DNA of 64,000 nucleotides from a virus (taxonomy: Duplodnaviria > Heunggongvirae > Uroviricota > Caudoviricetes), in the IMG/VR virus record IMGVR_UViG_3300020200_002792. One strand, written 5' to 3'. The notes beneath the pieces were generated by a model. The model worked only from the letters and a program-made list of their open reading frames with translations. It searched no databases and was not told the origin of the DNA. Below, in pieces: positions 2,981-49,221 of this stretch. Every line of letters begins with the position of its first letter. Within the stretch, counting starts at the first letter, position 1. The translations under genes and the position numbers were made by a program.

Positions 2981-3235
2981 CTATTGATAATTCGCTGCAC
3001 CACTATAAAGTGCATCTCTATTTGGTTTGTAATAAAACATAGCATCATTTATAAAAGAATCAATTTCTTTTTCTAATCTATTAAAAATTGCATTCGCATC
3101 TTGCCCAATTTTAATTTTATTTAGAGCATCTTGTAGTTTAGCATGGATCATTTTTTTAGCATTCTCTATTTCCCACTGAAATGCTTGTGCTTCTTGATTT
3201 TCCTGCATTTCATTATAAAATTGTAAAAAGCTCAT
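2981..3235 (-). CDS. hypothetical protein; weak member of the capsid-targeting N-terminus family
   Basis: Starts MSFLQFYNEMQE, loosely like the shared M-x-x-F-x-[EQ]-[YWF]-[LI]...E signature. Confidence 0.3.
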   Translation of the reverse strand: MSFLQFYNEMQENQEAQAFQWEIENAKKMIHAKLQDALNKIKIGQDANAIFNRLEKEIDSFINDAMFYYKPNRDALYSGAANYQ

Positions 3236-3452
3236 GTTTTATTTACCCGTTGACAAACAAAAAAACTAAAATATAATAAGACTATGATAGGCAAACGAGT
3301 CTCATTTTGGGAAGATTTAGGCCATAAACGCTGCATGGTCATCGAAGTAGAGTATTCTGGGGCTATTACCTCTTTGCAGGGGACAAATGCCCAAATTGCC
3401 GTAGATTTTGTAGACGGCATGAACATTGATCCTCCTGTTCTAAAAACTAAAT

Positions 3453-4049
3453 CTATTTCTGATTTACAATTCTAGGATTAAACTTATTCACTAAATTTCT
3501 TGGAACGTCAAATATTCTAGCACTACCTAGACCGTAATGGACATTTATCATGTTGGGGTTCGGGTTCTTGTCGTCAGCGTTTATGTAATTCCAAGGCACA
3601 GCTATACTGATGACTGTAGGATTTTGATTTTTTATTTGTGCTTGTCCTCTTGCTACCTGAGCCGCTGTTGCCATATTATCTGAAAAGGACTGATATGCAG
3701 ATTTCCATTCTGGATCATAATTACCAGCTATACCTCTGTAAAGTTTAAGATTATTTTGGTTAGCATGAGCATTTATAGCATTTAAATCTACTCCTTGTTG
3801 TTGTGGCTTATTTTGTATTTTTTGCATTATAGCTTGGGCAAATTGGGAACTCATCTGAACAGTTATGCCTACTGGATTGCCTTTGCGAAATACTTGCCAG
3901 TAATTGCCTTGAATTTGTTTTATACTAGCAATTGGTCCCATTTTTCGGCCATCTTGAAATTTAAGATATGTTCCATCTGGACCCCTATCTATTACATTCG
4001 CAACAAGTCCCTGAGTTTCTTCTAGAAATAACCATTGTTTGAATCGCAT
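3453..4049 (-). CDS. hypothetical protein with T4-CTS-like N-terminus
   Basis: Starts MRFKQWLFLEE. No other recognisable domain. Confidence 0.4.
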   Translation of the reverse strand: MRFKQWLFLEETQGLVANVIDRGPDGTYLKFQDGRKMGPIASIKQIQGNYWQVFRKGNPVGITVQMSSQFAQAIMQKIQNKPQQQGVDLNAINAHANQNNLKLYRGIAGNYDPEWKSAYQSFSDNMATAAQVARGQAQIKNQNPTVISIAVPWNYINADDKNPNPNMINVHYGLGSARIFDVPRNLVNKFNPRIVNQK

Positions 4050-4118
4050 TCATTATTTATTTTATTTTAAAATTAATTTCGTTGACAAAACTTGAAGCGT
4101 TTTAAATTATATATTGCA

Positions 4119-4592
4119 ATGAAAACATTCATGCAATACATAGAGGAGTCAAATCCTGTCCTTGATAAAATGTCTGGTTACTTAAATCAATTAGCGGCAA
4201 ATTTTCAATTAATTGCTCATCAAACAATGGACACCATTGCTCCTTCTATCATGAAAACTGGCTTTGGCAAAAGTGGATTGTATGGTACTAGCCTTTTGGT
4301 TAATCCACAAAGTATTATTCAAACAGCATCCACTATGTTTAGTGGCGATGGCGTGGCTCAAATTCACAAAGGAGCTAATTCTCTAGTTGTACTAGCATTT
4401 CCTAAACAAATTATCCAAAAATACAATCTCAAAGACATGAGAGATATTGACGACCACCTAATGGAATTATACTCTCAAGGCAGAATACCAATCTTTGGTT
4501 TGCCTAGTAAATATATTGTTGGCTATTTTGCCAACAGACAATTTTTTGCCAACGGACAATTTAACCCAGATATAAAATTATTGATGATTTGA
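4119..4592 (+). CDS. hypothetical protein with T4-CTS-like N-terminus (start at the internal Met of ORF 4092..4592)
   Basis: MKTFMQYIEE aligns residue-for-residue with the T4 internal-protein capsid targeting sequence MKTYQEFIAE. Confidence 0.45.
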   Translation: MKTFMQYIEESNPVLDKMSGYLNQLAANFQLIAHQTMDTIAPSIMKTGFGKSGLYGTSLLVNPQSIIQTASTMFSGDGVAQIHKGANSLVVLAFPKQIIQKYNLKDMRDIDDHLMELYSQGRIPIFGLPSKYIVGYFANRQFFANGQFNPDIKLLMI

Positions 4593-4927
4593 TTCCTTCA
4601 ACCAACTCTTCTGCCTGTACCTTCCAATGTTCTTTCAATTGGTCTTTAAATGACACACAATCATCTACGAACTCATTACATATACTTTTGTCGCCAAAAA
4701 TAACACCTATCGCCATTATTATATACCTAATGAAAATTACATGCAAAGCAAATAATAAAATGCAAATAATCTCAACCATTAGCTGCCTCTATTTCGGATT
4801 CTTCTTCACTTATAATGGTTACGGGCGGGCAATTCTCTTCGTAAAAGACTGAAACAATAAATTACTTGAATCCTTTCTGGCAACACACCAACTGTAGGGC
4901 TACGACTCCCATGCTAGTGGATGGTAA

Positions 4928-6052
4928 ATGTCTAAAGCTTTTATTACTGTTGGTCCTGAAGGTAAAAGCCATACCTTTTCTCAATTCGGCTCAGGTACAC
5001 TTGCAAATGTGCCAACCTACTTAGGCCCTAATGTCGTAGTTTGGCCAGAAGCACTCCTTAAAGAAGCCCAGCACTTGCTAGAAATTGGCCTCAGTTATCC
5101 ATTAAAGAGCGTATCTATTGATTCTAAATGCCTTATTACGACTGCATATCATAGAGCATTAAATAGATTAAGAGAAATAAAACGTGGGTTCGTTAGACAT
5201 GGCTCTTGTGGACACGGAATTGCTGAAACAAGAAAATATTGGCTTAAATACAACCAAGATTCTATTTTCGCAAAAGACCTTAAATTTCCTCATGTTCTAG
5301 AAGAAAAATTAAATCTGATCCGCCAAAGAATATTACTTGAAATACAGGAAATACAATTATCTCAAACAGAATCTGTAACAGAACAACTTGAAGTTTTTGA
5401 CTTGCCAATTAAAAAAATGGCAAAAAAACTATGGCAAACTAATTTAAAGATCGTAGAACAAATACCAAATTACAGGACAGCAGTATTTGAAGGTGCCCAA
5501 GGCGTTCTTCTGGATGAATGGTTTGGATTTTTTCCTTATGTAACCAGATCAACTGTAACTTCCAAACATGCTCATGAATTAATTACAGAAGGAGATGAAG
5601 TTACAACTATAGGTTGTATCAGACCTTATGCCACAAAACATGGAGCAGGCCCGCTTCCTAATGAAGATAAAGAATTAACAAAACATGTAAATGACACTGG
5701 TAATCCCTGGAATCAATGGCAAGAAAATTTCAGAACAGGATGGTTAGACCTGGGGTTACTTAAATATGCTCTTGATATAGAAAAAGTTGATTGCTTGGCG
5801 GTTAGCTGTATTGACCATTTAGAAAATTATCAAGAAACTCGTCTTTATGATGGTGCCTTCGATTTCAGTAAGCCAAAGTATAATATAAGGTTAATGGAAT
5901 CAAACACAGAAATATTAAAATCAACAAGACATAAGGGACATTTTATAGCCTTAGATGAATTACTAGAAAGAATAGCAATTGTCCCTATTGGCATCGAAGG
6001 AAGAGGTCCAACCTGGAAAGATAGGAAATCTAATGTATACCAAAACTTGTAA
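4928..6052 (+). CDS. adenylosuccinate synthetase family protein (PurA/PurZ-like) with degenerate N-terminal catalytic motifs
   Basis: FEGAQGVLLD...FPYVTRSTVTS (PurA GAQG...TYPYVTSS), HGAGPLPNE (VGAGPFPTE), RTGWLD. The GDEGKGK P-loop is GPEGKSH, the GGHNAGH block is absent, and IGTTGRGIGP is HGSCGHGIAE. 374 aa versus ~430 for PurA. Confidence 0.55.
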   Translation: MSKAFITVGPEGKSHTFSQFGSGTLANVPTYLGPNVVVWPEALLKEAQHLLEIGLSYPLKSVSIDSKCLITTAYHRALNRLREIKRGFVRHGSCGHGIAETRKYWLKYNQDSIFAKDLKFPHVLEEKLNLIRQRILLEIQEIQLSQTESVTEQLEVFDLPIKKMAKKLWQTNLKIVEQIPNYRTAVFEGAQGVLLDEWFGFFPYVTRSTVTSKHAHELITEGDEVTTIGCIRPYATKHGAGPLPNEDKELTKHVNDTGNPWNQWQENFRTGWLDLGLLKYALDIEKVDCLAVSCIDHLENYQETRLYDGAFDFSKPKYNIRLMESNTEILKSTRHKGHFIALDELLERIAIVPIGIEGRGPTWKDRKSNVYQNL

Positions 6053-6260
6053 TGAAAATGGAAGAATAATTTACGAAAAATATCAAAGCTGGTATGATGT
6101 ACTCCTGGATGGATATAAAATGAGTCTAATGTTCATCCTTGTAGGAATGATAGGTTTAGCCATAACTCCAATTATGGTAATAATCAATTTTTATAGACCT
6201 AAATGTATAGGCTCTGGGTCTGTAAAACCACAAACGGATCATGAATATCATTGTTTATGA
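6036..6260 (+). CDS. small hydrophobic protein (questionable)
   Basis: Internal Met of ORF 5979..6260. Hydrophobic stretch LMFILVGMIGLAITPIMVIINF. Fills the PurA-like/MetRS gap. Confidence 0.25.
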   Translation, partial: YTKTCNENGRIIYEKYQSWYDVLLDGYKMSLMFILVGMIGLAITPIMVIINFYRPKCIGSGSVKPQTDHEYHCL

Positions 6261-7783
6261 GCAAATTTTTTCTTACTACAGCTATTGATTATCCAAATAG
6301 TCTACCCCATATCGGTACTGCCTTTGAAAAAATTGGTGCTTATGTTCAGGCTAGATATCGTCGTTTCAAAGGCGATGATGTATTTTTCCTAATGGGGAAT
6401 GATGAAAATACATGGAAGGTTGCCAAACGTGCTAATGAATTAGGAGAAGAACCTAAAGCATATGTTGATCGCATGGCTTTAGAATTTAAGAAAACTTGGA
6501 ACGCCCTTAATATATCTTATGATGATTTTATTCAAACTACCGAAAAAAGACATATTCAAGGAGTAGACTTTTTTCTGAGACGTGTTATTGATCAAGGATT
6601 CGTTTATAAAAAACAATATAAAGGACTTTATTGTGAAGGTTGCGAAGCCTTTAAAACCACAAAAGAAATTGAAGAAGGCCATTGTATAAATCATAAAAAT
6701 CAAGAACTTAAAGAAATAGAAGAAGAGAATTATTTTTTCAAGCTAAGTGAATTTAAACAACCTTTAATTGATTTGTTGACTTCAAAGCAATTATTAATAC
6801 AGCCGGAATCTCGTTACAACGAAATCATGTCTGTCCTTAATGATGACCTAGAAGATATTTCAATAAGCAGGCGAAATCTAGGATGGGGGATACCTTTTCC
6901 TGGTGATCCTAGCCAGGTCGTCTATGTCTGGTTTGATGCATTGCTTAATTACATGACAGGTTGCGGTTATCCTAATAAGTCTGAATGGTGGCCTGCTGAT
7001 ATTCATTTTATTGGCAAGGATATCACTCGCTTTCATTGTTTGATCTGGCCAGCAATGATCTTAGCTTACAATACCAAATCACCTGAAATAGCACAGCCAA
7101 AGGCAGTCTTTGCTCATGGTTTTGTTAAGAACAGGGGCACAAAAATAGGCAAATCTACAGGTAATTTTGTAGACCCGCTTGAAATTGTTAAGGAATTTGG
7201 TTGTGATGCTTATCGTTACTACTTCCTAAGCCGCTGTGATTATGGAAGCGATGGCGAATATGACCGTAAACACTTCATTGAAGTTTATAACGCAGATTTA
7301 GCAAATAATTTAGGAAATCTCCTCAGTCGTGTTATTAGCATGACAATTAAATACTTTAAAGGAGATATAAGTATATCTAACTATAAACCACGTAACATAA
7401 GTGGTTGTGATGATTACTGCAAAAACATAGAAGAATGCGAATATAAAGTTGTGCTGGAAAAAATCTGGCATATATTTAGTCTTATGAATGCTTACGTTGA
7501 TGAAAATAAACCTTGGGCACTAATCAAGGAAGATAAACAAAAAACAGCAGGTGTTTTATGTGAGCTAATAAATGGATTGCGATTAATGGCTATCCTTCTA
7601 AAACCTTTCCTACCAGATACGTCTCGTAAAATATATGAATCATTTAACTTTGGATATCCTTGGAGAAAATTAACATTAGATTCTTTTTCTTCAGACTATA
7701 ATTCAAGTAATAACATTAACATAATTGCTGTGGATAAACCATCTTCTTTATTCCCAAAATATGAAATAGAAACAGCTATATAA
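6251..7783 (+). CDS. metG: methionyl-tRNA synthetase catalytic core; no C-terminal tRNA-binding extension
   Basis: HIGH-type motif YPNSLPHIGTAFE; zinc knuckles CEGCE...GHCINH; KMSKS-type KIGKSTGN; WPADIHFIGKDI. Confidence 0.8.
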   Translation: MFMSKFFLTTAIDYPNSLPHIGTAFEKIGAYVQARYRRFKGDDVFFLMGNDENTWKVAKRANELGEEPKAYVDRMALEFKKTWNALNISYDDFIQTTEKRHIQGVDFFLRRVIDQGFVYKKQYKGLYCEGCEAFKTTKEIEEGHCINHKNQELKEIEEENYFFKLSEFKQPLIDLLTSKQLLIQPESRYNEIMSVLNDDLEDISISRRNLGWGIPFPGDPSQVVYVWFDALLNYMTGCGYPNKSEWWPADIHFIGKDITRFHCLIWPAMILAYNTKSPEIAQPKAVFAHGFVKNRGTKIGKSTGNFVDPLEIVKEFGCDAYRYYFLSRCDYGSDGEYDRKHFIEVYNADLANNLGNLLSRVISMTIKYFKGDISISNYKPRNISGCDDYCKNIEECEYKVVLEKIWHIFSLMNAYVDENKPWALIKEDKQKTAGVLCELINGLRLMAILLKPFLPDTSRKIYESFNFGYPWRKLTLDSFSSDYNSSNNINIIAVDKPSSLFPKYEIETAI

Positions 7784-8077: not shown

Positions 8078-9544
8078 TCAACCTTCTTGGGCGGTGGGAT
8101 AGTCTAAAACAAACCTCATTTGCCCTGCATCCCAGATTCTGTCATATCCATTTAGTTGCATGATTTCCCATTCTTTCAAATTTTTGTCATAAAATGGCAT
8201 GCTAATAAGATTCTTTTTTTGAAAACTTAGCCTACTGTGCATTGTATTGTTTCTTATATTAAAGTATGAAAAACTAGGGCGGCTCACTCCATCAAACTTA
8301 AATCCAATAGCTTTGTATAACTTTCCTTGTGAATAACGTCTGTCAGCGTAAGTAATGATGCTGCCTTTATATTTAGTCCTAAAATGATTTAAAAGTTTAC
8401 TTGCACCACCAACTACAGATGTGAAATTTTTAGTGCAGAATCTAATCATTTCATATTTGTAACTTCTGTTAAAACGACTCCCATCAAATGTCATGCAAGC
8501 AACAATATTGCCATTATACTCTAATCCATATTTTATTTTGGCGTTGTCTGGACCTTGAATGTGATTTATTGTTAAAAACTCTTCCGTTTCATACCTTTTT
8601 AATTCAACAATTTTTGTCTTTCTTGCATAAATTTTATTGCTTTTGCCCAATAAGTTAATTACTTTAGACTTGATTATGTCTTTTTTATCTTCCCATTCTG
8701 TACTGTATATTTGCACTAAATTTATATTTTTTCCCAAGGCTGCATTGCATTTGTTATAATGATACTTTCTGCCTCTTACTGTTTCTAAATGCCAATATAT
8801 TCCATGATATTCAAATCCCAAATTTAGTTCTGGAAGGTAAATATCAATTTCTTTATCTTCTAATATTTTCCTATCATTTTGCAGTATCGTTCCATTATAA
8901 TTTTCTTTAATGTATTCGTATATTTCTTTCTGTGGTTGAGAAATTTTTATTATGGCCCCACATGAAGGACAACCATTCTTTAAATGAATGTGATTCCCGG
9001 CTCTTTGTTCAAAATCTCCATGAATCGGGCATGTTATAATTATTTTATCTGACATCCTAACGAAAACTGTTTTTGCATAACTATATTTGTTTTCATGGAT
9101 GACATTAGCTATATTGATGAGAGATGTTAGTGAATGTTTGCTTATTCCTCTGCCATTACAGAATTGGCATCCGTGCTTTAAATGTTGAGTTGGCAATTGA
9201 TGCTGGATACCGTGCTTTTCGCAAATGTATTTAATTTTAGTTTGTTTATTTTTATATTCGGTAATTGAATAATTATACTTGTTTCCCCATTTATCTTTTG
9301 CTTGATTTATAAATTGCTCATTAGTTTTTTGTAATGGGTGTTTTCTTTTTTCAATTCCACATTTATAACACCCTTGTTTTTGGTGTATATGTGCATAAGG
9401 CAATATTTCAAAAATGCCATGTTTACATTTTATTTTAACTTTGGTATGTGCGTTAACGTATTCAGTTAAACTATAATCGTAAACAGAGCCATGCACCGCT
9501 ATAGCTTCAGAAATAAAAACAGGGGTTGTCTTTTTATTAGACAT
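8078..9544 (-). CDS. homing-endonuclease-like protein: three zinc-ribbon repeats, a Vsr/DUF559-type nuclease core, and an unknown C-terminal domain
   Basis: Three repeats of KxxCxxHGxF...HLxxGCxxCxG. Then LPELNLGFEYHGIYWH...R...NxxK...LGKNINLV, resembling the Vsr/DUF559 restriction-endonuclease-like core. Confidence 0.45.
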   Translation of the reverse strand: MSNKKTTPVFISEAIAVHGSVYDYSLTEYVNAHTKVKIKCKHGIFEILPYAHIHQKQGCYKCGIEKRKHPLQKTNEQFINQAKDKWGNKYNYSITEYKNKQTKIKYICEKHGIQHQLPTQHLKHGCQFCNGRGISKHSLTSLINIANVIHENKYSYAKTVFVRMSDKIIITCPIHGDFEQRAGNHIHLKNGCPSCGAIIKISQPQKEIYEYIKENYNGTILQNDRKILEDKEIDIYLPELNLGFEYHGIYWHLETVRGRKYHYNKCNAALGKNINLVQIYSTEWEDKKDIIKSKVINLLGKSNKIYARKTKIVELKRYETEEFLTINHIQGPDNAKIKYGLEYNGNIVACMTFDGSRFNRSYKYEMIRFCTKNFTSVVGGASKLLNHFRTKYKGSIITYADRRYSQGKLYKAIGFKFDGVSRPSFSYFNIRNNTMHSRLSFQKKNLISMPFYDKNLKEWEIMQLNGYDRIWDAGQMRFVLDYPTAQEG

Positions 9545-9640: not shown

Positions 9641-11116
9641 TTAAACGATAAAATTGGCTATTGACATTCTTGCATAGAATTTAGCACCTTCACGTAGAAG
9701 TTTCTTGCCATAGCGGGTTAAGATACCCTTTCTTGGGCAGAAACTCTCTGGGTCAAGAACAACAGGTGTCTGAGTTAACGGAACGTATGGACAGTAAAAA
9801 TATCCGCTATCCATATAACTGTCTCCCTTGTAACCAGCTAAAAGCTGATTGTTTGGGAATAATGGGTCTTTGTATAGACGCCATCTGTTGTTAATTGTTC
9901 CGACGTACTGGATGCCTAAGCTGCTGGTGAAAGTCTCAGAAGGACTTGGTGCAAAACCAGCGGTTGCGGTTTCGAACATGGAAGCGACTTCAGGAGAAGT
10001 AACAATCCAGTTGCAACCACCACGCAGGGTCTTTCTGTGGACGACTGCGGAAAGTTCGACTACTTTAACATAAAGAGACTCGTACTTCTCTTTAAAGGTT
10101 TCGCCCAAAGCGGTATTAAAGTCCCAAGCGGCAACTGTACCGGCATTGTTACGAAGGTCAGTTAAGACTTCACGGTCGATTTCCAGGTTAATTTCTTGAG
10201 CCAGAACTGCGGTCAATTCGGCTTCGGCGTCTAGGTTATGCTGAGAACGCAAGTCCTGTTGAGCCTCATAGCTCCAAACTGCCTTTAACTTACGGGTACG
10301 GGCAGCGATTTCTTCGGACTCGACAACCAAGTTAATCTCAGGCAAATCTTGGTTGCACTCCATGTTGTACTCATAAGAGACAACAATGTGGTTAGGACCG
10401 GCAGCAGATGTCCACTGAACAACAACTTCGCCAGTCTCAAGATCGATGCTGGAACCAGAAGATTGGCCCTTAGCAGTTAGACCAGAAACCAAGTCGGTGA
10501 AAGTAAATGTACCAGATGCATTAACAGTGAAGGTCTGGATAGCAACGGAACCATCATAGACTGTACCTGTTACTGTTCCGGCGAATACTGGAGTGTGCTG
10601 GAGTGGAGCATAAGTAGCTGTAGTGATAACACCAGCGTCAGTGCTAGAAACTTCATTCTGCACAAACTGAGAAGCGTACCAAATGTCCAGGTTAGCAGTA
10701 CCATCGGCCAACTGCTGCAATGAATTTGCGTCATCGCCAGGGAATCCGCCATTATTGGTTGCGCCCTGAATAGCACCTTTATTGCTGCTATAACGGAAAC
10801 GCAGGTAATATACTAAACCAGTTGGGCCTAGTAATGGCTGTACGGAAACGATCTTGTTAGCGATCAACTGAGGATAGATACGACGAACAAGAGGAATAGA
10901 AATTCTCTTGAACATAGCAATATCGCCAGTGTCGGTAGCGACTTCGTTCATAAGATACTGGTTTTCAAGCAGTACGGCGCAAGCCTCTTTTTGGTGGCGA
11001 TTTTCGGTGAAATTACCTTTGCGATCATATTCACCGATACCTTCTAGCAAGCCAGTTTGAGTCCATTTCTCAGACAGCTGACGAGCTTCGTTTAAAAATC
11101 TAGCATTAGCGTTCAT
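9641..11116 (-). CDS. major capsid protein, T4 gp23-like (HK97 fold)
   Basis: Blocks matching recalled T4 gp23: VRRIYPQLIANKIVSVQPLLGPTGLVYYLR (gp23 VRRAIPNLIAFDICGVQPMNSPTGQVFALR), QQDLRSQHNLDAEAELTAVLAQEINLEIDREV (AQDLRAVHGMDADAELSGILATEIMLEINREV), YKGDSYMDSGYFYCPYVPLT (YKGPNEMDAGIYYAPYVALT). Synteny with scaffold and protease. Confidence 0.85.
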   Translation of the reverse strand: MNANARFLNEARQLSEKWTQTGLLEGIGEYDRKGNFTENRHQKEACAVLLENQYLMNEVATDTGDIAMFKRISIPLVRRIYPQLIANKIVSVQPLLGPTGLVYYLRFRYSSNKGAIQGATNNGGFPGDDANSLQQLADGTANLDIWYASQFVQNEVSSTDAGVITTATYAPLQHTPVFAGTVTGTVYDGSVAIQTFTVNASGTFTFTDLVSGLTAKGQSSGSSIDLETGEVVVQWTSAAGPNHIVVSYEYNMECNQDLPEINLVVESEEIAARTRKLKAVWSYEAQQDLRSQHNLDAEAELTAVLAQEINLEIDREVLTDLRNNAGTVAAWDFNTALGETFKEKYESLYVKVVELSAVVHRKTLRGGCNWIVTSPEVASMFETATAGFAPSPSETFTSSLGIQYVGTINNRWRLYKDPLFPNNQLLAGYKGDSYMDSGYFYCPYVPLTQTPVVLDPESFCPRKGILTRYGKKLLREGAKFYARMSIANFIV

Positions 11117-11133
11117 ATTTTTCCTTTAATTAA

Positions 11134-12054
11134 TTAACTCTTTTTTGTTCCTGCGAGCAAGTTGGCGGTATTACGATCCAGTCCCATATGCTCTAGGAGT
11201 TTTGTGTCAACTGCTTCTCGGACTGCTGGTTTGGCATCAGTTGTAGTCTCTTTAATAACTTCAACTTGCGAATCCTCAACTACACGTCCTTTCCCCTTTA
11301 CATTCTTTGCATTCTGGTTTCTTTCGTGCTTTTCATTCTTTCTACCTTCTGTCAATAATGCCTCATTATTCTTAACAGCTTCAGTTAATTTGGCGTTAAG
11401 CTGAGTATTCTGACGAGAAATATTAATGTTTCTTGATTCAACTAGCTTGACTTGAGCCTTAAGAGCTTCAACTTGCCTGTTGACTTCTTCAAGTTTGCTG
11501 ATTGCGGTTATATCTTCATCTGCTAGGTAATGGGCTGCGATATTTACGATCTTGTCTAATGCAACCTTGTACTCTGCCATGCGTGGATGGCTAAGAACGT
11601 CACGTTTTGCGTTCTCATAAATCTCTGCTCCCTTGAACTGAAGATAGGCGTCTAATTTATCGACAACATATTCTTTCATTTCCTGAAGTTTGCCGTCATA
11701 CTCATCATAAATTTCAGCTTCTCTTGAGTTGGTGGCGTTTTGAACTTCTTGAATCTTTTGTGCAGCGACTGCATACTGCTCATTCATGAATCGTGTCCAC
11801 TCTTCATTCTGGAACTCAAGACGATTACGAAGTTCAGTGATATGAGCGAAAGCTTCCTGATAGCCTTCATAACCTGTTTTTTCTGCTTCTTCTTTTTTAG
11901 CTGTCAATTCTGTGAATGCCTCTTTAAGATTGGCATCGAATTCAGCTTCTAATTCTTCCCTGGCTTCTGCCATTAATGCGTCAACAGCAGCGGTGACTTC
12001 TTTAAGTTGGTCGGCAGGAATAAATTTCTTTAATGCTTCAAGAATCTTGTCCAT
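11134..12054 (-). CDS. prohead scaffolding protein (gp22-like)
   Basis: Acidic, E/K/A-rich predicted coiled coil of 306 aa, between the protease and the major capsid gene. Confidence 0.55.
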   Translation of the reverse strand: MDKILEALKKFIPADQLKEVTAAVDALMAEAREELEAEFDANLKEAFTELTAKKEEAEKTGYEGYQEAFAHITELRNRLEFQNEEWTRFMNEQYAVAAQKIQEVQNATNSREAEIYDEYDGKLQEMKEYVVDKLDAYLQFKGAEIYENAKRDVLSHPRMAEYKVALDKIVNIAAHYLADEDITAISKLEEVNRQVEALKAQVKLVESRNINISRQNTQLNAKLTEAVKNNEALLTEGRKNEKHERNQNAKNVKGKGRVVEDSQVEVIKETTTDAKPAVREAVDTKLLEHMGLDRNTANLLAGTKKS

Positions 12055-12056
12055 AA

Positions 12057-15809: not shown

Positions 15810-15841
15810 ATGGTATTTATGGCATTGACTTTAATAGTAAT

Positions 15842-39375: not shown

Positions 39376-39400
39376 TTATTTATATATTATAATTTTAGTG

Positions 39401-41334: not shown

Positions 41335-44300
41335 TCAGCAAACAAGTTCATGTTCGCTCCTCAAAACACAAAGCCTAATATCATCTTCTTTACGTTTGGC
41401 TACCTTATGTCTTTCCCATTTAGGAGGACTTTCAAAAGTAAATCTCCTAAAGCCACCTGACGGCCCCTTTAACCTCATCCTTAACAACTTGCCTGGAATT
41501 ATTTCTTCTTTAAATCTTTCAAAGTCTTCTTTCCATACCTGAATCTGTTGCATTTCGCTATTTGCATCCTCTGCTTCGACTAACCAATATGTGTTGTTTT
41601 TCTTAGACATCATGCTCTTGACAGTCAAAATCCTTAATTCAACAGGATTATTTTCCTCTATACATACTTTAAAATCTTCAAATGTCATCCCACCACAATA
41701 GTCAGGACTCTTAGAAAGAGGATGATCCCATAAAAACCCATAATAAGCAAGTTGGGATGCTTCTAAAGATTCATAGTTTTCAAGAATCTTGTCAGCTATT
41801 TCATATTCTTCAGAAACAAAAGGTTTTTCTTCCAAACCAGTCTTAGAAGTTTCCAATCCTCTATAATAATTCTTTAAAACTGTCAAACCTTTCTTCAAAC
41901 TGTTCTTCATACAATAATCATAAATTTCCTTATTGTTATCTGGAAAATGCCATAACTCCTCTGGGACGATTGCCTCAATTTGTTCCTTCAATTCCTTTTG
42001 TCTTCTAATCCACCGCCTTCTTTTTTCATCAATTCTCTTCCTAGACTTCTTAACCCATTCAGCATACTTCAATAAATGGACAACATCTTCGCCAAAAATT
42101 CTAAGACCAATCAAAGGTTTAAGAACTGCCGTATCCGTACCAAATTTATTCAAAAAGTCATCAAAATCATTATAGGGTTGGTTATCTACTACCCTTTGGA
42201 CTACAGCATCTCCAATCCCAACAATATTAGAAATTCCATAATATATTTCTTCATCAACAATAGCTGCTTTAGCTTTAGATTTGCTAATATCGATTGGATT
42301 TACCTTGATATTATGCAATTCAGCTTCCATTTTGTATTCTTTGAGTTTGTCAACCTTATCTTCACAAACAAGACTAGATGTATAAAACTCAATTGGATAA
42401 TGAGCTTTAAAATAAAGAAGCCGCATAGCAATAACACAGTAACCGCAAGAATGACTATTATGGACTAGAATGCCATTAGCAATATAATTATGATTATTTT
42501 TAATACAAATATCATAAGTTTTATCTTTGCCGCATTTCTTAATTGATTTTACTTGCGTCCAAAAAATATTACTGTTAACTATTTTCAATAATTCAACATG
42601 CTTAAAAGTTTTAGCAATTATTTCAATAGTTTTTCTTAAAAAAGACTTCTTGTTTTTATCTTTCAAAAGAATTCTATGAGTCAGTCCACATTTATCTAAG
42701 CAATATCTGCCATACGACTTTCTAATTTCAAGGAGATAAGGCATTACAAGATTATATGGCAGCATATCACGTTCGTTACAGAAGATACTATATTTATAGA
42801 GAAAACTTTGATCACATTTTTTAGAACACATATATTTGCCTATACTTTTAGCAAATCTTTCCCTCCAATTATACCCTCCAACTTTAACTATATAACCTAT
42901 TTTTCTCATTCCCCGATAATTAAAAAATTTCTTATTTAACACAGAAACAAAACCTATTCTGAGCAAAAGTTCTTGCACTTGCTCTGCTAATTTCAAAGAA
43001 GATGTGGCATAGTAAGTGTTGCTTCTATCTACACATCCATCCCCTTCCCACATTCGTCCAAGCAATAACATGATTTGCTTAGAAGATAATTGAAAAACCC
43101 AATCAGGTAAAAATTTTTGAGGAGCTTTTTTCCAACACAAATCATTTTTCCTGGCCCATTGCAACAAATTAGTGGGAACATATTTTTTATAACTTCCAGA
43201 ATGGCCTGAATTAATACAGATTACCCACTTATCTTTGTAGTATTGCTTAGTAATATGAGACTTTCCAAATTTCTTAGCTGCCTTTACAAAATCATCAACA
43301 TAAAATTCATCTTGATTAAAAAAATACAAAGAACTAGGATGACAGGTATTACCTTCTGTAATTAAACCAGCTAAAACTATCAGTTCATGACTTTCAACTT
43401 TATGAGTGGCTACACAATCTCTTTTGGAAGGTAAAGCTACCCAATCACCAAGCTTCAAATCACTTAAAGGAATCCATCCTATATCAGTTAAAAATTTATG
43501 TTTTTCTGTACATTTAATAGCATGGTGAGATTTAGTGATTAATTCAAAAATTGATTTTTCACCATTATCAAAAACATCTTCTATAACAGATATTTCAAAT
43601 TTGCCATTCTTATCTAAAGAACCAGTCTTCATTCCCTTTTTAGCTTCACGGACCTTAAATGGTATTCCAAATTCATCGTATAAAACAGAATCGCCATGCA
43701 AGCACTTGTTGAAGCTGTACCCACTAAATGCCTCTATTTGAGTCCAAAATTCATTCATCTTTTCCAAACTATATCCCAATCGTTTCATGCCATTCTCAAT
43801 GAAACGATTTTTATAAGTCTGGAATAAATCAAGCCTCTTTTTGGATATAGCTTTTCTGACAATCTCACAATCTTTTAATGGCACATCACCTATTTGATTC
43901 AATATTCGCATGATTTGTTCTTGATAGATCATACAACCATAAGTTTCTCCCAAAATAGGTTTCAAAAGAGGATGAAGTCCATAAGCTTCACCCTTTTTTC
44001 TTTTTATATAAACTTCTGATTGTGCAATGGCCCCTGGACGATAAACGCTAAGATACGCCATCAAATCATTGAACCCATCAACACCGCCTTTTTTAACCAA
44101 TTGTCTCATGCCTTCGCTATCAAACTGAAATATGCCTCTTAAATCTGCTTTATTTGCCATTTCAATCGATTTAGGAGCATTCAAATAAGAAGTATCTGAC
44201 CAATCTTTCTTTCCAGGCTTTGCACAAATACTAGTTAAACCATGTCTATCTTTTACTAATTTTTTAGCTATAGCTATTTGTTTTAAATTAGACAAAGACA

Positions 44301-45048
44301 ACAAATCAAACTTAACCAAACCAACAGGCCCTAAATCCTGACCATGTAAACCTTCCACCCAAGCTGTACAAGGCAAATCATCTTTGTCTTTAACCAATGG
44401 GACAAAATTATTGATAGGTTTGCTGGATATAATTAATCCTCCAGCATGCTTACCCATACTATTGTTTCTATGCAAAAGCTTTTTAGCCGCTGTTGCTACT
44501 TCTGGATGATCCTCACAATACTTCTTCATTTCTGGAAATAACTCAACAGCTTTATCCCAGGTTAATGTTTTGCCTTCATCGTCCTTTAAACCCAATTTTT
44601 TAGTTACAGCCGTTACTTCATCTTTATCACAACTATACACTCTGGCCATATTTTGAAGTGCTGATTTAATGCCGAAAGTGTTATAGCTACCAATATTGGC
44701 TACAAATTCTTGGCCATAAAATTTTGGTGCCCAGATGTTCTTCAGATAATCTCGAACTTCTGGAAGAAAGTCGCAGTCCGAATCAGGCATGTCACCGTAA
44801 ACGTAGGTAGGCTCTTTGTCTATCTCTAAATCGTCTACTATGCCTAAAAGATATGGGATTAAGAGGTTTTTTTGATTATAAGGATATCTGATTTGCTTTT
44901 TGTGTAAATCTAGAAAATAATCATGCTTGTTTTGAGCATCTATTTCTTTTAATTCCAGGGCTAATCTCTTAGTATACTTCTCTTCTTTAAGCCCTTTACT
45001 TTCTAACCTAGCATTTAGAATTATAATCAATTCATCTTTAGCTTCCAT
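41335..45048 (-). CDS. dnaE: DNA polymerase III alpha (DnaE), C-terminal part; contains an intein. DnaE-homologous start is Met87 (44788..44790); aa 1-86 are a degenerate duplicate of an N-half segment
   Basis: MGKHAGGLIISS (AGKHAGGVVIAP), GLVKFDLLSLSNL (GLVKFDFLGLRTL), GIFQFDSEGMRQL...YRPGA (GVFQLESRGMKDL...FRPGP), FSGYSFNK[intein]SHSCGYCVIAMRLLYFKAHYPIEF ([32 protein letters not shown]). MPDSDCDF matches MPDFDVDF. Confidence 0.85.
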   Translation of the reverse strand: MEAKDELIIILNARLESKGLKEEKYTKRLALELKEIDAQNKHDYFLDLHKKQIRYPYNQKNLLIPYLLGIVDDLEIDKEPTYVYGDMPDSDCDFLPEVRDYLKNIWAPKFYGQEFVANIGSYNTFGIKSALQNMARVYSCDKDEVTAVTKKLGLKDDEGKTLTWDKAVELFPEMKKYCEDHPEVATAAKKLLHRNNSMGKHAGGLIISSKPINNFVPLVKDKDDLPCTAWVEGLHGQDLGPVGLVKFDLLSLSNLKQIAIAKKLVKDRHGLTSICAKPGKKDWSDTSYLNAPKSIEMANKADLRGIFQFDSEGMRQLVKKGGVDGFNDLMAYLSVYRPGAIAQSEVYIKRKKGEAYGLHPLLKPILGETYGCMIYQEQIMRILNQIGDVPLKDCEIVRKAISKKRLDLFQTYKNRFIENGMKRLGYSLEKMNEFWTQIEAFSGYSFNKCLHGDSVLYDEFGIPFKVREAKKGMKTGSLDKNGKFEISVIEDVFDNGEKSIFELITKSHHAIKCTEKHKFLTDIGWIPLSDLKLGDWVALPSKRDCVATHKVESHELIVLAGLITEGNTCHPSSLYFFNQDEFYVDDFVKAAKKFGKSHITKQYYKDKWVICINSGHSGSYKKYVPTNLLQWARKNDLCWKKAPQKFLPDWVFQLSSKQIMLLLGRMWEGDGCVDRSNTYYATSSLKLAEQVQELLLRIGFVSVLNKKFFNYRGMRKIGYIVKVGGYNWRERFAKSIGKYMCSKKCDQSFLYKYSIFCNERDMLPYNLVMPYLLEIRKSYGRYCLDKCGLTHRILLKDKNKKSFLRKTIEIIAKTFKHVELLKIVNSNIFWTQVKSIKKCGKDKTYDICIKNNHNYIANGILVHNSHSCGYCVIAMRLLYFKAHYPIEFYTSSLVCEDKVDKLKEYKMEAELHNIKVNPIDISKSKAKAAIVDEEIYYGISNIVGIGDAVVQRVVDNQPYNDFDDFLNKFGTDTAVLKPLIGLRIFGEDVVHLLKYAEWVKKSRKRIDEKRRRWIRRQKELKEQIEAIVPEELWHFPDNNKEIYDYCMKNSLKKGLTVLKNYYRGLETSKTGLEEKPFVSEEYEIADKILENYESLEASQLAYYGFLWDHPLSKSPDYCGGMTFEDFKVCIEENNPVELRILTVKSMMSKKNNTYWLVEAEDANSEMQQIQVWKEDFERFKEEIIPGKLLRMRLKGPSGGFRRFTFESPPKWERHKVAKRKEDDIRLCVLRSEHELVC
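42457..43704 (-). mobile_element. LAGLIDADG intein in DnaE at the GYGFNK/SHS site (416 aa)
   Basis: Starts CLHGDSVLYD, ends ILVHN followed by S. LAGLIDADG blocks ELIVLAGLITEGNT and LLLGRMWEGDGCV. Junction codons checked against the DNA. Confidence 0.8.
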
Positions 45049-45075: not shown

Positions 45076-45279
45076 TCAGTCAATACTAAATAGACCCCCA
45101 ATAGAATTTGGATAAGCACTTAAATCATCCCCCTGATACTCGCTAACTCTCACAACAGACAACCATTTATTGCTTTTCATATATTTATTCGCTTCTTCCT
45201 CATCAATAAAAACCTTAGTTAAAAACCAAGGAGAAAAAAGCCCACCATAATCATCTTCATAAATTAAGTAGACTTTCAT
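45076..45279 (-). CDS. hypothetical small protein
   Basis: 67 aa, overlaps the upstream gene stop. Confidence 0.3.
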   Translation of the reverse strand: MKVYLIYEDDYGGLFSPWFLTKVFIDEEEANKYMKSNKWLSVVRVSEYQGDDLSAYPNSIGGLFSID

Positions 45280-47345
45280 TTGAATCCCATTGACCTTTCT
45301 ATATCCTGGTCAGAAGAAATGTATTCCTTCATTGAAGACAAAGTAAAAATAGCATCTTCGTATTCATCACCAAGGATTATAACGGCAACAAACAATTCTT
45401 TCAAATGTGCAATACTAAATCCATTCGTATCTTCAATCCATTTAGAAAGAGGAACTTTTAATTCTTTTACTTTATCACCCATCAAATATTCAAAATACAA
45501 TTTTCTACTTTCTTCATTTGGATGACCTATCTTGAACCTCTTATCAAACCTGCTTGGCCTATTAATGACTCTTGGACCTAATTCTTCTGGATAATTAGTA
45601 GTTGCCAAGAATACGCACTTGTGGACACATTCAACACCATCCAATATATTCAAAACACCAGATTCATCACCATAATTATGCATTATCGCATCTAAATCTT
45701 CCATCAAAACTACAACAGGTGTTTCTGGCTGAATTGTTCTGAATATTCTCATGCCTTCTATGAAAATATGAGGATGACAAAATTTAACTACTATGCCGCC
45801 TCTTTCAACCACATCTTTCATAATAAGTTGAATAGAACTCGATTTACCACTATTATGATGAACAATATAATCAGAAGTTAAATATAAATGATCACCCGAA
45901 ATTGTAAACCCATAAAACTTCCCTTTGCCAAGAGATTCAATTTTTCTAATGCCTGTTCTTAACGGGTCTTTATTAGGCATTCCAACTAGTGCTTTTTTTC
46001 TTGCAAGTTTTACAGGAATTCTAGAAATATCACCAAATATGTTAAGCCGCCAATAATCTCCTTCAAAGTCTATTTCTTTAATTCCTTTTTTTACTTTTTT
46101 AATTGTCACACCAAAACCAAGACTTCTAGCCAATTCAACTATCTGCCAAGCCAACCTTTCTCTTTTCTGAATAATTTCAAAATAATCTTTATAACCTTTT
46201 TTCTTAAATTTAGCACTTTTCCTCCAGGTAGCAACACAATAACCTCCATCAGTATCAACTAACCCTGCCAATAAACCTAGCCTTTGCTGCACTGAAGAAT
46301 ACATATAATTATCTGGGATGTGCTTATCCTCCAATACATTTAAATTTCTTAATTCATTTAAAACATAATTGCCGCCTTTTGATCCATCGCCAACTATATT
46401 CAAAGCCCAACAAATAGAATCTGTTTTACGCCTTTCTGTTAAAGATAGTCCAAAACAAAATGCATATTTTCTCAAATATTCTTTTATTTCCTGGTCAGCA
46501 GAATTAACCTCAGTTTTACCTTCAGAACCATCACCCAGCCAAACTCCTAAAAAATAAGGTTCCAATGGCAATTCTTGTTTTTTTTCAAAATTCACTCCAA
46601 TTCTGTACAACTTAAACGACCATTGAGAGCATTTGGTCAAATTCATATAATCATTTAATTTAATATTCATTACAGGAGGAAATCTCAATTCAACGCTACT
46701 AGTTCTTCTTAAACTTAAAACATGATTGCCATTTACTACAAAAGGTTCTCCCTTATTAGGATATACTCTGTACATTTCATCGATACCATGCCTTAATTCT
46801 AATACCCTACGTGGCTTAGAATCAGGCCCCATAAGTAAATCACCAACTTCTACGTCTTCTACTTTCTTAGTTTTCCCATCAAACATTCTAATCAATGTGC
46901 CTTTTCCATGACACCCAGCAGGGCCGTATAATATCACGCCCCTTTTGTATGCTAAACCAAATTCTTTAAATACCGCTTCCTTATCCCAGAATTTTTTAAT
47001 CTCATCAACAACCTTTTCTGAATTAGTTTGAGGAAATCTAATAAGACCTTCAGTTTTTACTGGAACTTTTTCAAAATATATACCAACTCCAGGAGCTTGA
47101 AGAATGTCATAAACTCCAGGAATAAGCTTATCTATTGTGTGACTAGCAGGTATGAAAGTTCTTTTGTCAGAAGTAGTCCATTGAACTAAATTGCCAAGCT
47201 TAACTTGTTGTTCTTCTTTTTCTTCTGACATATCACTACCACGACAAGAAGTAGCATATGCTTTATTGTAAGGTTTATATGCTGGTTCTTTTTCTGCCGC
47301 ACTTTTTAATAACTCAATTAACTCACTATCTTCTTCTCTTGACAT
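45276..47345 (-). CDS. classic-clade AAA ATPase with an intein in the Walker A loop
   Basis: Extein reads VILYGPAG[intein]SGKSSSIQ (Walker A), then VVVLMEDLD (Walker B) and second region of homology ATTNYPEELGPRVINRPSRFDKRF. Confidence 0.7.
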   Translation of the reverse strand: MSREEDSELIELLKSAAEKEPAYKPYNKAYATSCRGSDMSEEKEEQQVKLGNLVQWTTSDKRTFIPASHTIDKLIPGVYDILQAPGVGIYFEKVPVKTEGLIRFPQTNSEKVVDEIKKFWDKEAVFKEFGLAYKRGVILYGPAGCHGKGTLIRMFDGKTKKVEDVEVGDLLMGPDSKPRRVLELRHGIDEMYRVYPNKGEPFVVNGNHVLSLRRTSSVELRFPPVMNIKLNDYMNLTKCSQWSFKLYRIGVNFEKKQELPLEPYFLGVWLGDGSEGKTEVNSADQEIKEYLRKYAFCFGLSLTERRKTDSICWALNIVGDGSKGGNYVLNELRNLNVLEDKHIPDNYMYSSVQQRLGLLAGLVDTDGGYCVATWRKSAKFKKKGYKDYFEIIQKRERLAWQIVELARSLGFGVTIKKVKKGIKEIDFEGDYWRLNIFGDISRIPVKLARKKALVGMPNKDPLRTGIRKIESLGKGKFYGFTISGDHLYLTSDYIVHHNSGKSSSIQLIMKDVVERGGIVVKFCHPHIFIEGMRIFRTIQPETPVVVLMEDLDAIMHNYGDESGVLNILDGVECVHKCVFLATTNYPEELGPRVINRPSRFDKRFKIGHPNEESRKLYFEYLMGDKVKELKVPLSKWIEDTNGFSIAHLKELFVAVIILGDEYEDAIFTLSSMKEYISSDQDIERSMGFK
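45852..46913 (-). mobile_element. LAGLIDADG intein in the P-loop of the AAA ATPase (354 aa; coordinates from codon arithmetic)
   Basis: Starts CHGKGTLIRMFDG, ends YIVHHN followed by SGKS. LAGLIDADG blocks YFLGVWLGDGSEG and LGLLAGLVDTDGGY. Confidence 0.7.
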
Positions 47346-47442
47346 TAAAAAACTCCATCCGATTATAGATGGAGTATAAGAAATAAAAATAATTATTACA
47401 AGGCCAAAAAATAACCCCAGCTTTTTATGGCTAGGGTTATTG

Positions 47443-48036
47443 CTAAGGGAAAGTCAAATAACTTGAAACTGCTTTACAAAACTCAACCAAATTATTCTCA
47501 GGCCATTCAAATTTGGCAAGTTGTGCTATTAAAGCTACAAACTGAATATTGCCTTTTATATAACCTTTACCACTATCTATCCTATCTAAACTTGCCCTGT
47601 CGGGAGTGCGTGGTAATTTTGAACCAATAGTAGGCAAATTTTTAAGTTGCCATCCAGTATACGGGCAAACACCTTTTTGTTTTTCCCACTGTTCTTTAAG
47701 ATCAATTAATGTAACGCCACATTCTTTATTATTTCTTCTTATAATGTTTCGATAATGCCAACGAAAAGGCGAATATTCATCTGGTGTCCGTACTTTTAAA
47801 TTTTCAGGTCTACCACCACCTAAATGTTTATAATTATCCTTTCCTGCACATCTAAGAGAACAATAAATTTTCCTGCCTAGCTTTTCATTTCTTGATAGCT
47901 CACCAACTTCTCTTAAAAATGTTTTACCACAAATAAAACACTGAACTTCTTTTTTCATAAAAACCTCCATTATAACATAGTAAGTTATAATGGAGGTTGT
48001 CGAAATTTTATTGGAGGCGTTGGGGATTGAACCCAA
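47443..48036 (-). CDS. HNH_3-type homing endonuclease, paralog of 32654..33244; true start probably an internal Met near 47955
   Basis: CFICGK...CSLRCAG...GVCPYTG...ASLDRIDSGKGYIKGNIQFV...N. The N-terminal 25 codons of the ORF overlap the tmRNA 3' end. Confidence 0.55.
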   Translation of the reverse strand: MGSIPNASNKISTTSIITYYVIMEVFMKKEVQCFICGKTFLREVGELSRNEKLGRKIYCSLRCAGKDNYKHLGGGRPENLKVRTPDEYSPFRWHYRNIIRRNNKECGVTLIDLKEQWEKQKGVCPYTGWQLKNLPTIGSKLPRTPDRASLDRIDSGKGYIKGNIQFVALIAQLAKFEWPENNLVEFCKAVSSYLTFP

Positions 48037-48362
48037 GTGAACGTGTAATGATGATTAAGCCTCTACATGCTTATCTCCTTGTTCATTACAGTTTTAGAAC
48101 TACAAAGAGCAAAAGTCCACAAACTGTTACGACATATTTTCTCATCTAAAAGCAAGTCGTCCGCTAATAGACCAGCTAGATTTTACATCAGGCTTTTGGA
48201 CGCATCCAGCATTAGCTTCCTGAGCCTGTTGGCCGACTTAAGCAGCCAAAGAGTAAGAAACTTCCTCAATTAAGAGTAATCGCATTTTATACTGGCCTTG
48301 CGATTAACCAGTGCATGCCACATTAACCACGCAACTTACCGTTTCGAAACCAATTCGCCCCC
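48012..48362 (-). ncRNA. ssrA: tmRNA (ssrA), ~351 nt; ends approximate
   Basis: RC reads 5' GGGGGCGAAUUGGUUUCGAAACGG...GUGGCAUGCACUGG (cf. E. coli GGGGCUGAUUCUGGAUUCGACGGG...GUGCAUGCCGAGG) and ends ...CUUGGGUUCAAUCCCCAACGCCUCCA (T-arm plus 7-bp acceptor pairing with the 5' end, discriminator A). Internal tag frame ...GAG GAA GUU UCU UAC UCU UUG GCU GCU UAA = EEVSYSLAA-stop (E. coli ends YALAA). Confidence 0.65.
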
Positions 48363-48435
48363 GATTTGTCAAAGACCTACTAATCTATTTATTCTATAGT
48401 AAAAAGTTTTAAAATCAAGCCCCCTATATAGAAAT

Positions 48436-49221
48436 ATGATAAAATTCTCTGAATATTTGGACAACCAAGGCAAAATGGAAAAAACAAAAATCTCTGTGGA
48501 TGGAGATACAGGCCCAAGTCCAACAAAAGCACCAGAACCAGCCGCAAAAAAGGGCAAAAACTGGAAATGCGAAACCACTTTGGCTGAAAAACCAAAGGAT
48601 TACGCAACCAGTACACAACCAGACAAACAAATGGTTATGAAAGACAAGGACGCCAAGCCTGGTTTGGGCACTGAAGGAGATAAAAAACTAATTTATGAAC
48701 CAGAAACTCCTACAAAATCAACCGCTGATGGCATGGTAAATATCAAACCTACTTGGCCAAAAGCTACTGAGAAAACTACAGCTACAGCAGAAAGTTTTAT
48801 CAATGCCACCAAAGATATGTCTACAGAAGAGTTTGTAGCTTATTTGTCTGAAACTAAAGAAAAAGAAGAACACCCATTAAAGACAATCATTAATGCCGTT
48901 CGCTTAATGAAAGACAATGATAAGCTTACTGAAACCTTTGTAAGAGAAACACGCAGACAAGGCTCTTTGGATATTCTAGTAAATGAAATGTTCAAATTAG
49001 AAGAATCATACAAAGGTTTAGCTACATTACTTTCAGATATCAGCCATCAGAATAGACTAAACGATGCTATTAAAGAAAGCACTGAAGCACCTGCATCCGA
49101 AACAGAAGGCGAAGATAAGAAAGCAGTCGGTAAAAGGAAAGCCAAATCCATAAAAGGACAACCAATGGATATGGGAAACGATGTTGTAAGTTCTAAAGCT
49201 TCTATGTCGAACAAGAAGTAG
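48436..49221 (+). CDS. low-complexity K/E/T/P-rich protein with T4-CTS-like N-terminus (candidate internal/ejected protein)
   Basis: Starts MIKFSEYLDNQGKME. 261 aa, largely predicted disordered. Confidence 0.4.
   Translation: MIKFSEYLDNQGKMEKTKISVDGDTGPSPTKAPEPAAKKGKNWKCETTLAEKPKDYATSTQPDKQMVMKDKDAKPGLGTEGDKKLIYEPETPTKSTADGMVNIKPTWPKATEKTTATAESFINATKDMSTEEFVAYLSETKEKEEHPLKTIINAVRLMKDNDKLTETFVRETRRQGSLDILVNEMFKLEESYKGLATLLSDISHQNRLNDAIKESTEAPASETEGEDKKAVGKRKAKSIKGQPMDMGNDVVSSKASMSNKK

Follow-up and report, generated by a model that had tools for sequence, protein, structure and literature searches.

Nine unrelated proteins of an uncultured huge phage share a candidate T4-type capsid targeting sequence

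The head module and the tagged genes

The stretch of DNA analysed here (the window) comprises 64 kb with a GC content of 34% from the IMG/VR virus record IMGVR_UViG_3300020200_002792. It encodes a T4-type head module and nine open reading frames (ORFs) whose products share an N-terminal peptide, the tag, that matches the capsid targeting sequence (CTS) of the internal proteins of phage T4 (Table 1). The window is part of an uncultured huge-phage lineage with a T4-like head. Its major capsid protein has 77.7% identity to the one of LR756511.1 (LR756511 in the following), an uncultured phage of 595 kb, but only about 30% to that of any cultured phage. A search of the phage collection gave no nucleotide-level match to the window, and genes identical to its own are found on contigs (the longest having 74 kb) of the JGI lake metagenomes 3300020193, 3300020198, and 3300020214.

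The original prediction had placed a gp21/gp22/gp23-like module at positions 9641-12707. Protease and capsid protein of this module are supported by Pfam, while the scaffold is presumed from the position of ORF 11134-12054, its composition, and its conservation across the clade, and the same ORF is the presumed docking partner of the tags. The T4 gp21 protease, for which the active-site residues have been described, cuts after glutamate in I/LxE motifs and more weakly in xxE motifs (PMC12991175). The catalytic residues of the T4 enzyme, His85 and Ser140, have aligned counterparts in all clade members, in the protease of the window His73 and Ser126, and this protease is presumably the one by which the tags are removed. 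When the capsid N-termini are aligned, the T4 gp23 cleavage site FLTE/AEIGG (the slash denoting the cut) corresponds to the clade-invariant RL[MIF]NE/[VSA], which reads YLMNE58/V59 in the window. Maturation cleavage of the capsid protein is therefore predicted after Glu58, and the aligned sites indicate a T4-like hydrophobic-x-Glu specificity of the protease. The capsid protein itself starts with MNANARFLNE throughout the clade (11087-11116 in the window), with Phe7-Leu8-x-Glu10, half of the tag motif, opening the propeptide.

The tag was described by the pattern M-x(1,2)-F-x-[EQD]-[YFW]-[LI], and a six-frame scan of the window resulted in ten matches, nine of which are located at the first ATG of an ORF of 64-261 amino acids (aa). 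Glutamate is present at residues 8-15 in all nine tagged ORFs. Amino-acid composition predicts 0.025 matches among 87 genes, whereas the greedy gene set contains seven and the window as a whole nine (Poisson p ~1e-15). Inside proteins the core of the motif is not enriched (4 observed versus 2.8 expected). A position-specific scoring matrix (PSSM), built only from relatives that had not been retrieved through the search pattern, assigns 15-24 bits to the nine tagged starts and 8 bits to the next best start of the window. A chance origin of the shared starts was rejected based on the composition statistics and this separation. The thiamine pyrophosphate (TPP) enzyme at 26896-28542 (MLSVAEFLIE, 8 bits) was rejected as tag bearer because its TPP_enzyme_N domain already begins at residue 3. 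In general, the tag is a short amphipathic segment, M-[KI]-T-F-x-[EQD]-[WYF]-[LI], with hydrophobic residues at positions 1, 4, 7, and 8.

Table 1. Candidate tagged ORFs and head genes of the window. Boxes are the TA(A/T)ATA-type elements upstream of the start codons; pI, isoelectric point; nt, nucleotides.
Feature	Position	Strand	Length (aa)	N-terminus	PSSM (bits)	Upstream box	Remarks
Doubtful candidate	2981-3235	-	84	MSFLQFYNE...	3.0	3240-3245	
Tagged ORF	3453-4049	-	198	MRFKQWLFLEE...		TAAATA 4054-4059	
Tagged ORF	4119-4592	+	157	MKTFMQYIEE...	23.2	TATATA 4108-4113	closest match to T4 CTS
Major capsid protein, gp23 type	9641-11116	-					Gp23 PF07068, E 2e-83, above gathering threshold
Scaffold-position ORF	11134-12054	-	306				coiled-coil composition, 13 [LI]xE sites, between protease and capsid genes
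Prohead maturation protease, T4 gp21 type	12057-12707	-					Peptidase_S77 PF03420, E 8.8e-29, 100.8 bits (cut-off 27)
Tagged ORF	15333-15809	-	158	MLSFAQWLME...	17.9	TAAATA 15814-15819	2.6 kb from protease gene
Tagged ORF	19936-20337	+	133	MTFREFLEF...	15.2	TAAATA 19926-19931	
Tagged ORF	29154-29360	-	68	MITFNDWLLAKNE...	23.7	TATATA 29366-29371	pI 10.6, very basic
Tagged ORF	38204-38428	+	74	MITFNQFLEIE...	20.5	TAAATA 38194-38199, 4 nt before ATG	
Tagged ORF	39106-39375	-	89	MITFNEYLTLKGE...	22.9	TATATAAATA directly upstream, ~39377-39386	pI 9.5, Gly-rich
Tagged ORF	48436-49221	+	261	MIKFSEYLDNQGKME...	17.3	TATATA 48425-48430	K/E/T-rich
Tagged ORF	63100-63294	-	64	MTFKEFLALDE...	20.1	TAAATA 63299-63304	predicted mature part very basic, pI 11.5

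Eight of the tagged ORFs had been named in the original prediction, and their coordinates, strands, and N-termini agree with those found here. They had been claimed to share the N-terminus only, and indeed an all-against-all BLASTP without the first 15 residues revealed no significant pair among the tagged proteins. The descriptions of single products as a very basic 68-aa, a Gly-rich 89-aa, and a K/E/T-rich 261-aa protein also hold; the latter (48436-49221) is probably largely disordered. Scanning the window for further starts added ORF 63100-63294, which was not listed before. The weaker candidate 2981-3235 does not fit the pattern and scores far below the tagged starts, and is doubtful as tag bearer despite its upstream box. 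None of these ten candidates has a significant Pfam or PHROG match, and searching the PDB sequences with 3453-4049 and 4119-4592 gave no match. When 29154-29360, for which the public gene call gives the same 68 aa, and 19936-20337 were compared to cultured-phage records by tblastn, matches were found only in the uncultured LR756511. The search for IMG/VR relatives of 48436-49221 was empty, and a large protein database returned only the query itself.

The tag as a peptide and the upstream box

In T4 (NC_000866), the internal proteins IPII and IPIII start with MKTYQEFIAE and IPI starts with MKTFKEFTSTTTPVSTITE (MKTFKEFTS...ITE). The CTS of these three proteins was reportedly described by Mullaney and Black in 1996. 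As positive control, the same relaxed pattern was applied to 75 kb of T4 and recovered the three internal protein genes and one weak extra match. From T4 and closely related T-even phages, the CTS and CTS-like internal proteins are already known (PMC3012670, PMC9026906). T4 genetics assigns targeting mainly to residues 4 and 7 and processing to residues 8 and 10 (PMC9026906). The conserved positions of the tags in the window, Phe4, Tyr/Phe/Trp7, Leu/Ile8, and a Glu at about residue 10, are these same positions. The originally predicted match of the consensus to a T4-type CTS is thus in agreement with the T4 sequences, the conserved positions, the control, and the catalytic residues of the protease.

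Upstream of all nine tagged genes of the window a TA(A/T)ATA box ends 4-5 nt before the start codon and a Shine-Dalgarno (SD) site is missing, and AGGAG-type sites are found before many other genes of the window. In a clade sample of 133 distinct tagged ORFs, a lower bound for the clade, 41% have the box at this distance versus about 5% of the other ORFs. The original prediction had named in advance a finding that would speak against it, namely a start shared through duplication at the nucleotide level. However, the codons at the conserved positions vary (TTT/TTC; TAT/TTT/TGG/TAC; CTA/TTG/TTA/ATA), and the tag appears in two registers, as M-xx-F or M-x-F. In addition, orthologs carry the tag behind SD leaders. 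The LR756511 ortholog of 29154-29360 starts with MKTFIDWLKVKES behind an AAGGAG SD leader, and that of 48436-49221 with MDLKSFSEFL behind an AAAGGA leader, the box being located 18 nt upstream. For 19936-20337, the LR756511 ortholog starts with MDFREFYKLNE and an IMG/VR ortholog (L014) with MMSSNFQEFI. An SD site is present in 24 of the 78 tagged ORFs that do not have the box, and the internal protein genes of T4 have their tag behind ordinary SD leaders. The box layout without a tag is found at the protease gene, at 38425-39084, and at the C-terminal part of the DNA polymerase. Given the varied codons, the shifted register, the SD-led orthologs, and the untagged boxed genes, peptide and box are separable, and the pattern of conservation argues that the tag is under selection as a peptide.

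The arrangement TAWATA-N4-ATG is found ten times in the window compared to 3.9 expected occurrences. The box is also present upstream of positions 12707, 28542, 39084, and 45048. In GC-richer relatives it reads CTAGATAGGGC directly before the ATG, and starts matched in IMG/VR often follow directly on CTAGATAGGGC or CTAAATAGRGC. The box resembles the late promoters of the T4 family, in which TATAAATA or a CTAAATA box occupies about -12 to -6 relative to the transcription start and which work with a gp55-type sigma factor. In phage Aeh1, for example, the late box CTAAATA starts at -12 (PMC1524935). If the box were such a promoter, transcription would begin with the A of the ATG or right beside it, and the mRNA would hence have no leader. 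Most of the tagged genes and the protease gene may therefore be expressed together, from leaderless mRNAs.

The tag in relatives and its cargo

The complete LR756511 sequence contains 24 six-frame matches to the pattern, of which 16-17 are at real ORF starts (e.g. MKTFNQWLES, MKTFAEWIVEK, and MKTFSEWLEAD). This phage also encodes another S77 protease, a diverged paralog with 38% identity to the protease of the window, and several partial capsid-protein-like paralogs, with the S77 and capsid paralog loci (L004-L013) located at about 242.5-243.0 kb and also at 126, 196, 307, and 588 kb.

Scanning IMG/VR with a DNA pattern for MKTFx[EQ]WL yielded at least 120 loci, compared to a rough chance estimate of 10-20, and among the matches listed most are ORF starts. 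With the broader pattern at least 122 of the 4415 ORF starts in the listed loci are tagged, with up to five per locus of about 10 kb. Glutamate is found at residues 9-13 in 119 of the 133 distinct tagged ORFs (89%), compared to 27% of 2151 other ORFs. For the clade as a whole the consensus reads MKTFxEWLxE, in which Leu8-x-Glu10 is placed as in the T4 CTS. T4-core genes are present in 27 of the 120 loci listed, and in about 20 the protease-scaffold-capsid module is located within a few kb of tagged genes. One locus (L035) has an 80-aa tagged ORF between protease and scaffold. Capsid proteins with 77% identity to the LR756511 one are encoded on a 36%-GC and on a 54%-GC contig, and thus the tag has been maintained across a clade of very different base composition. 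Other T4-type lineages, cultured phages among them, have tags as well. A 29%-GC contig, whose portal protein is 61% identical to that of Vibrio phage Va1, contains four tags. Vibrio phage Va1 itself (MK387337.2, locus L148) encodes two unannotated ORFs of this type, MNFKEYLNGHT (66 aa, 10338-10538) just after the portal gene and MNFKEYLEDRQ (85 aa, 16622-16879) just before gp2-like and prohead-core genes. In Synechococcus phage S-B43, the hypothetical protein QDH50639.1 (L147 3634-4266), encoded beside gp4, starts with MKTFNQFNED. For two tagged proteins of relatives (from L035 and L088) no cultured-phage homologs were found. In a 572-kb relative (IMGVR_UViG_3300015615_000629, L030), the homolog of 48436-49221 at 1689-2780 has its tag-bearing N-terminal module tandemly duplicated, starting with MKFDEYLNAKGNIDKPKV... 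and then MKSLKEYLDEKGKITEPKV.... We found no paper on this tag outside the T-evens, and tag strings such as MKTFKEW appear in none; the literature with the term capsid targeting sequence concerns T4, P1, P22, or SPN3US.

The proteins behind the tag are diverse. The 4119-4592 family is conserved throughout with Glu9 being invariant, and the copies of its relatives are located near Portal_T4 and terminase genes; its AlphaFold2 model is unusable (predicted local distance difference test score, pLDDT, of 54.6). In the 19936-20337 family the conserved tag (M.F..[FY][LF].[LI].E) is followed by a variable, gapped linker and a conserved C-terminal domain. In relatives, some of whose tagged enzymes are of a host-takeover type, the tag forms an N-terminal extension of a 276-aa S-AdoMet lyase and precedes domains of known families: cytidylyltransferase/NMNAT-like (from residue 18), flavin mononucleotide (FMN) reductase (from residue 21), isochorismatase/nicotinamidase-like (from residue 48), and low-molecular-weight phosphatase (from residue 68). 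It is also found on an RNA ligase and on GP88. The protein 3453-4049 models as an ADP-ribosyltransferase (ART) fold. In this model the tag residues 1-11 are disordered, residues 14-65 form a beta domain at the N-terminus, and residues 101-189 form a C-terminal ART-fold domain, which in the prediction is structurally similar to known ARTs. A fold search of BFVD with the ART model gave no match at E <=0.001. Invariant residues in the family of four sequences are Y104-R105-G106, S117, Q120, S123, H171, and D181.

Several other features of the window were noted. Directly downstream of the capsid gene there is an ORF of 488 aa (8078-9544) that matches DUF723, contains Cys-rich repeats, and may be a homing-endonuclease-like insertion in the head module. 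The DNA polymerase is encoded by two ORFs about 5 kb apart (49983-52547 and 41335-45048), whose N-terminal and C-terminal parts match positions 44-396 and 441-1052 of phrog_405, respectively, and between which there are unrelated genes including the tagged gene 48436-49221. The large ORFs 45276-47345 and 58466-61876 have partial terminase-large-subunit matches plus endonuclease-like or unknown inserts and may be intein-bearing or fragmented packaging genes; the portal gene of one relative (L145) has two inteins. Cellular-type genes are dense at 4928-7783, 20769-21812, 26371-28542, and 29442-30188 and comprise adenylosuccinate synthetase, methionyl-tRNA synthetase (MetRS), DnaJ, IF3, a TPP-dependent enzyme, and PspA, with aldehyde dehydrogenase, UDP-glucose dehydrogenase, and dUTPase nearby. 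A direct repeat of 195 bp (97% identical) is present at 15965-16159 and at 63806-64000, where it reaches the end of the window. Each copy is the 5' end of an ORF starting with MITKCDVFENQNLRLL, which is truncated at 15842-16135 and longer at 63530-63976, and the first copy adjoins a serine-recombinase-like ORF with a Resolvase domain (16825-18861). The repeat may mark the boundary of a mobile element, or it may stem from a duplicated gene or from the assembly.

Capsid cargo, its alternatives, and known systems

With a probability of roughly 65%, the nine ORFs encode cargo (internal) proteins of the T4-type head that carry an N-terminal CTS. During prohead assembly the tag would dock the protein on the scaffolding core via the hydrophobic face formed by residues 1, 4, 7, and 8, and the docked proteins would become enclosed by the gp23-type shell. 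The gp21-type S77 serine protease would then cut after the Glu a few residues past the tag, in the same step in which it would trim the capsid protein after Glu58 and degrade the scaffold. The mature proteins thus freed would stay with the DNA in the capsid and enter the next host cell together with it. At least one of them, 3453-4049, would be an ART-fold protein analogous to T4 Alt, the others being small and mostly basic. An anti-defence role of most of the tagged proteins in the window is speculation.

Several observations weigh against this explanation. A [LIMF]-x-E sequence within the first 15 residues is found in only about half of the window's tags, and the Glu follows the tag at no fixed distance. 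A pI of at least 8 is found for 46% of the window proteome, and we therefore rejected the basic pI as strong support for a cargo role. The scaffold-position ORF does not match any Pfam or PHROG family, and a cultured member of the clade was not found. In LR756511 the tagged genes are scattered with none being located within 40 kb of the head module, and the proximity of tags to head genes in IMG/VR was rejected as strong evidence because of this scatter and because the detection of short viral contigs favours hallmark genes. The ART model was built from four sequences with a pLDDT of 73, and an invariant catalytic Glu was not seen in their alignment. Searching with T4 gp55 by tblastn revealed no late sigma homolog in the window, in LR756511, or in the IMG/VR loci, and the same box precedes a DNA-polymerase ORF. 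Late timing of expression is therefore not claimed as established.

The scatter in LR756511 would also suit an alternative in which the tag is a docking motif for a partner outside the prohead, such as a phage chaperone, a host factor, a membrane surface, or a degradation or regulation system, the proteins acting unpackaged in the producing cell. The motif is indeed a generic amphipathic segment, and metabolic-type enzymes like the FMN reductase, the isochorismatase, and the cytidylyltransferase have no obvious need for a capsid. However, several findings speak against such a partner. The motif agrees at each position with the CTS as mapped by experiment in T4, Glu follows in 89% of the tags as would suit a Glu-specific S77 protease, and the tag was seen here in T4-type phage contigs only, wherever the lineage could be checked. 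Tags also lie between protease and scaffold genes and beside portal and prohead-core genes, and one cargo parallels the packaged T4 Alt. We therefore regard this alternative as unlikely.

Decidedly less likely still is a purely historical origin of the shared N-terminus, left over from a common ancestor or from the recombination of cassettes whose promoter and first codons served as site for swapping gene bodies, as has been proposed for the T-even internal protein loci, with no targeting role at present. The gene bodies are unrelated and fast-evolving, several are without an LR756511 ortholog, and relatives have tandem tagged genes and, in L030, the duplicated tag module, all of which would fit such a history. 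But homologous recombination would need more DNA identity than the tags have with each other, and keeping the peptide in genomes of 29% to 55% GC requires selection on the protein. Cassette exchange would also be compatible with targeting rather than exclude it. The least probable explanation, and a very improbable one, is that the shared start is a by-product of a nucleotide element, a promoter fused to the start codon of a leaderless mRNA, with transcription start or 70S initiation constraining the first codons and the peptide being functionless, because a pure DNA element of this kind, although it would account for the box at all nine window genes and its excess among tagged relatives, is largely refuted by codon choices that differ both synonymously and non-synonymously while the residue class is kept (Y/F/W; L/I), by the shift of the motif by one codon and in orthologs by up to four relative to the ATG, by the SD-led orthologs, relatives, and T4 internal protein genes, and by the boxed genes that have no tag.

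The capsid cargo explanation could be extended beyond the window. Tentatively, and with somewhat less than even chances, the short CTS might be an ancient portable label across the T4 superfamily, from the T-evens through cyanophage-like and Vibrio T4-like phages to uncultured phages of 500-600 kb, that has been expanded in the huge phages to dozens of preloaded, DNA-delivered counter-defence or takeover cargo proteins per genome. As part of the same conjecture the cargo would include ART-fold proteins, SAM lyases, NAD-salvage-type enzymes, RNA ligases, phosphatases, and metalloprotease-like proteins, and many of them may be made from leaderless, mobile promoter-start-codon cassettes meaning "express late and package". 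The CTS is known from T4 and the T-evens, and the tags described here lie at a much greater evolutionary distance, with a large expansion of the tagged genes and an unusual fusion of the promoter-like box and the start codon. Injected proteins act before any phage gene is expressed and are among the most effective anti-defence tools known, examples being T4 IPI*, T4 Alt, and the Dar proteins of phage P1. If the tag is a label of capsid cargo, the set of injected proteins of uncultured huge phages, whose virions cannot be purified, could be read from the sequence, by searching S77-encoding genomes for MKTFxEWLxE starts; the present shortlist of compact candidate effectors comprises nine proteins in the window and more than 130 in the sampled clade. 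It would also offer a second natural tag for loading foreign proteins into T4-type capsids, and the loading system of tag, scaffold, and protease would be conserved well beyond the T-evens.

Other phages load their heads differently. The anti-restriction proteins of phage P1 are packaged in the head (PMC9024508, PMC12810830) and resemble the proposed cargo in being anti-defence enzymes that are produced late, packed into the capsid, and brought into the host along with the DNA, but P1 loads them through a hierarchy of Dar and Hdf proteins and not through a common, short, cleavable N-terminal tag or a T4-type S77 protease. The phiKZ-like giants (SPN3US, phiKZ, and 201phi2-1) have long N-terminal propeptides on ejection and inner-body proteins (PMC5694885). 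As proposed here, a gp21-related protease strips N-terminal propeptides from many internal and later ejected proteins of a giant phage. However, those propeptides are family-specific, comprise 80-130 residues, and are cut at A/S/G-x-E, a short tag common to unrelated proteins is not found there, and the capsid lineage is a different one.

T4 Alt is an ART that travels in the head and enters the host together with the DNA. Its counterpart would be 3453-4049, a candidate ART whose predicted fold stands behind a prohead tag. The two are not similar in sequence, as 3453-4049 has neither a Pfam nor a PDB sequence match, they differ in length (682 aa in Alt versus 198 aa), and the Alt propeptide MELITELFDE is unlike the internal protein type of tag. 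Compared to the T4 internal proteins, the phage analysed here belongs to an uncultured huge-phage clade with a capsid protein about 29% identical to gp23, prefers Trp at position 7 of the tag, has the Glu at a variable distance (residues 8-15), and has nine tagged genes in 64 kb, and 16-17 in LR756511, instead of three. Most of these genes abut a promoter-like box and have no SD site, whereas the T4 genes have SD leaders. Nevertheless, both systems have a tag of about ten residues at the N-terminus of unrelated, mostly small and basic proteins, M-K-T-[YF]-x-E-F-[IT] in T4 and M-[KI]-T-F-x-[EQD]-[WYF]-[LI] here, and in both it is encoded in a genome together with a gp21-type protease, a scaffold (here by position), and a gp23-type capsid protein.

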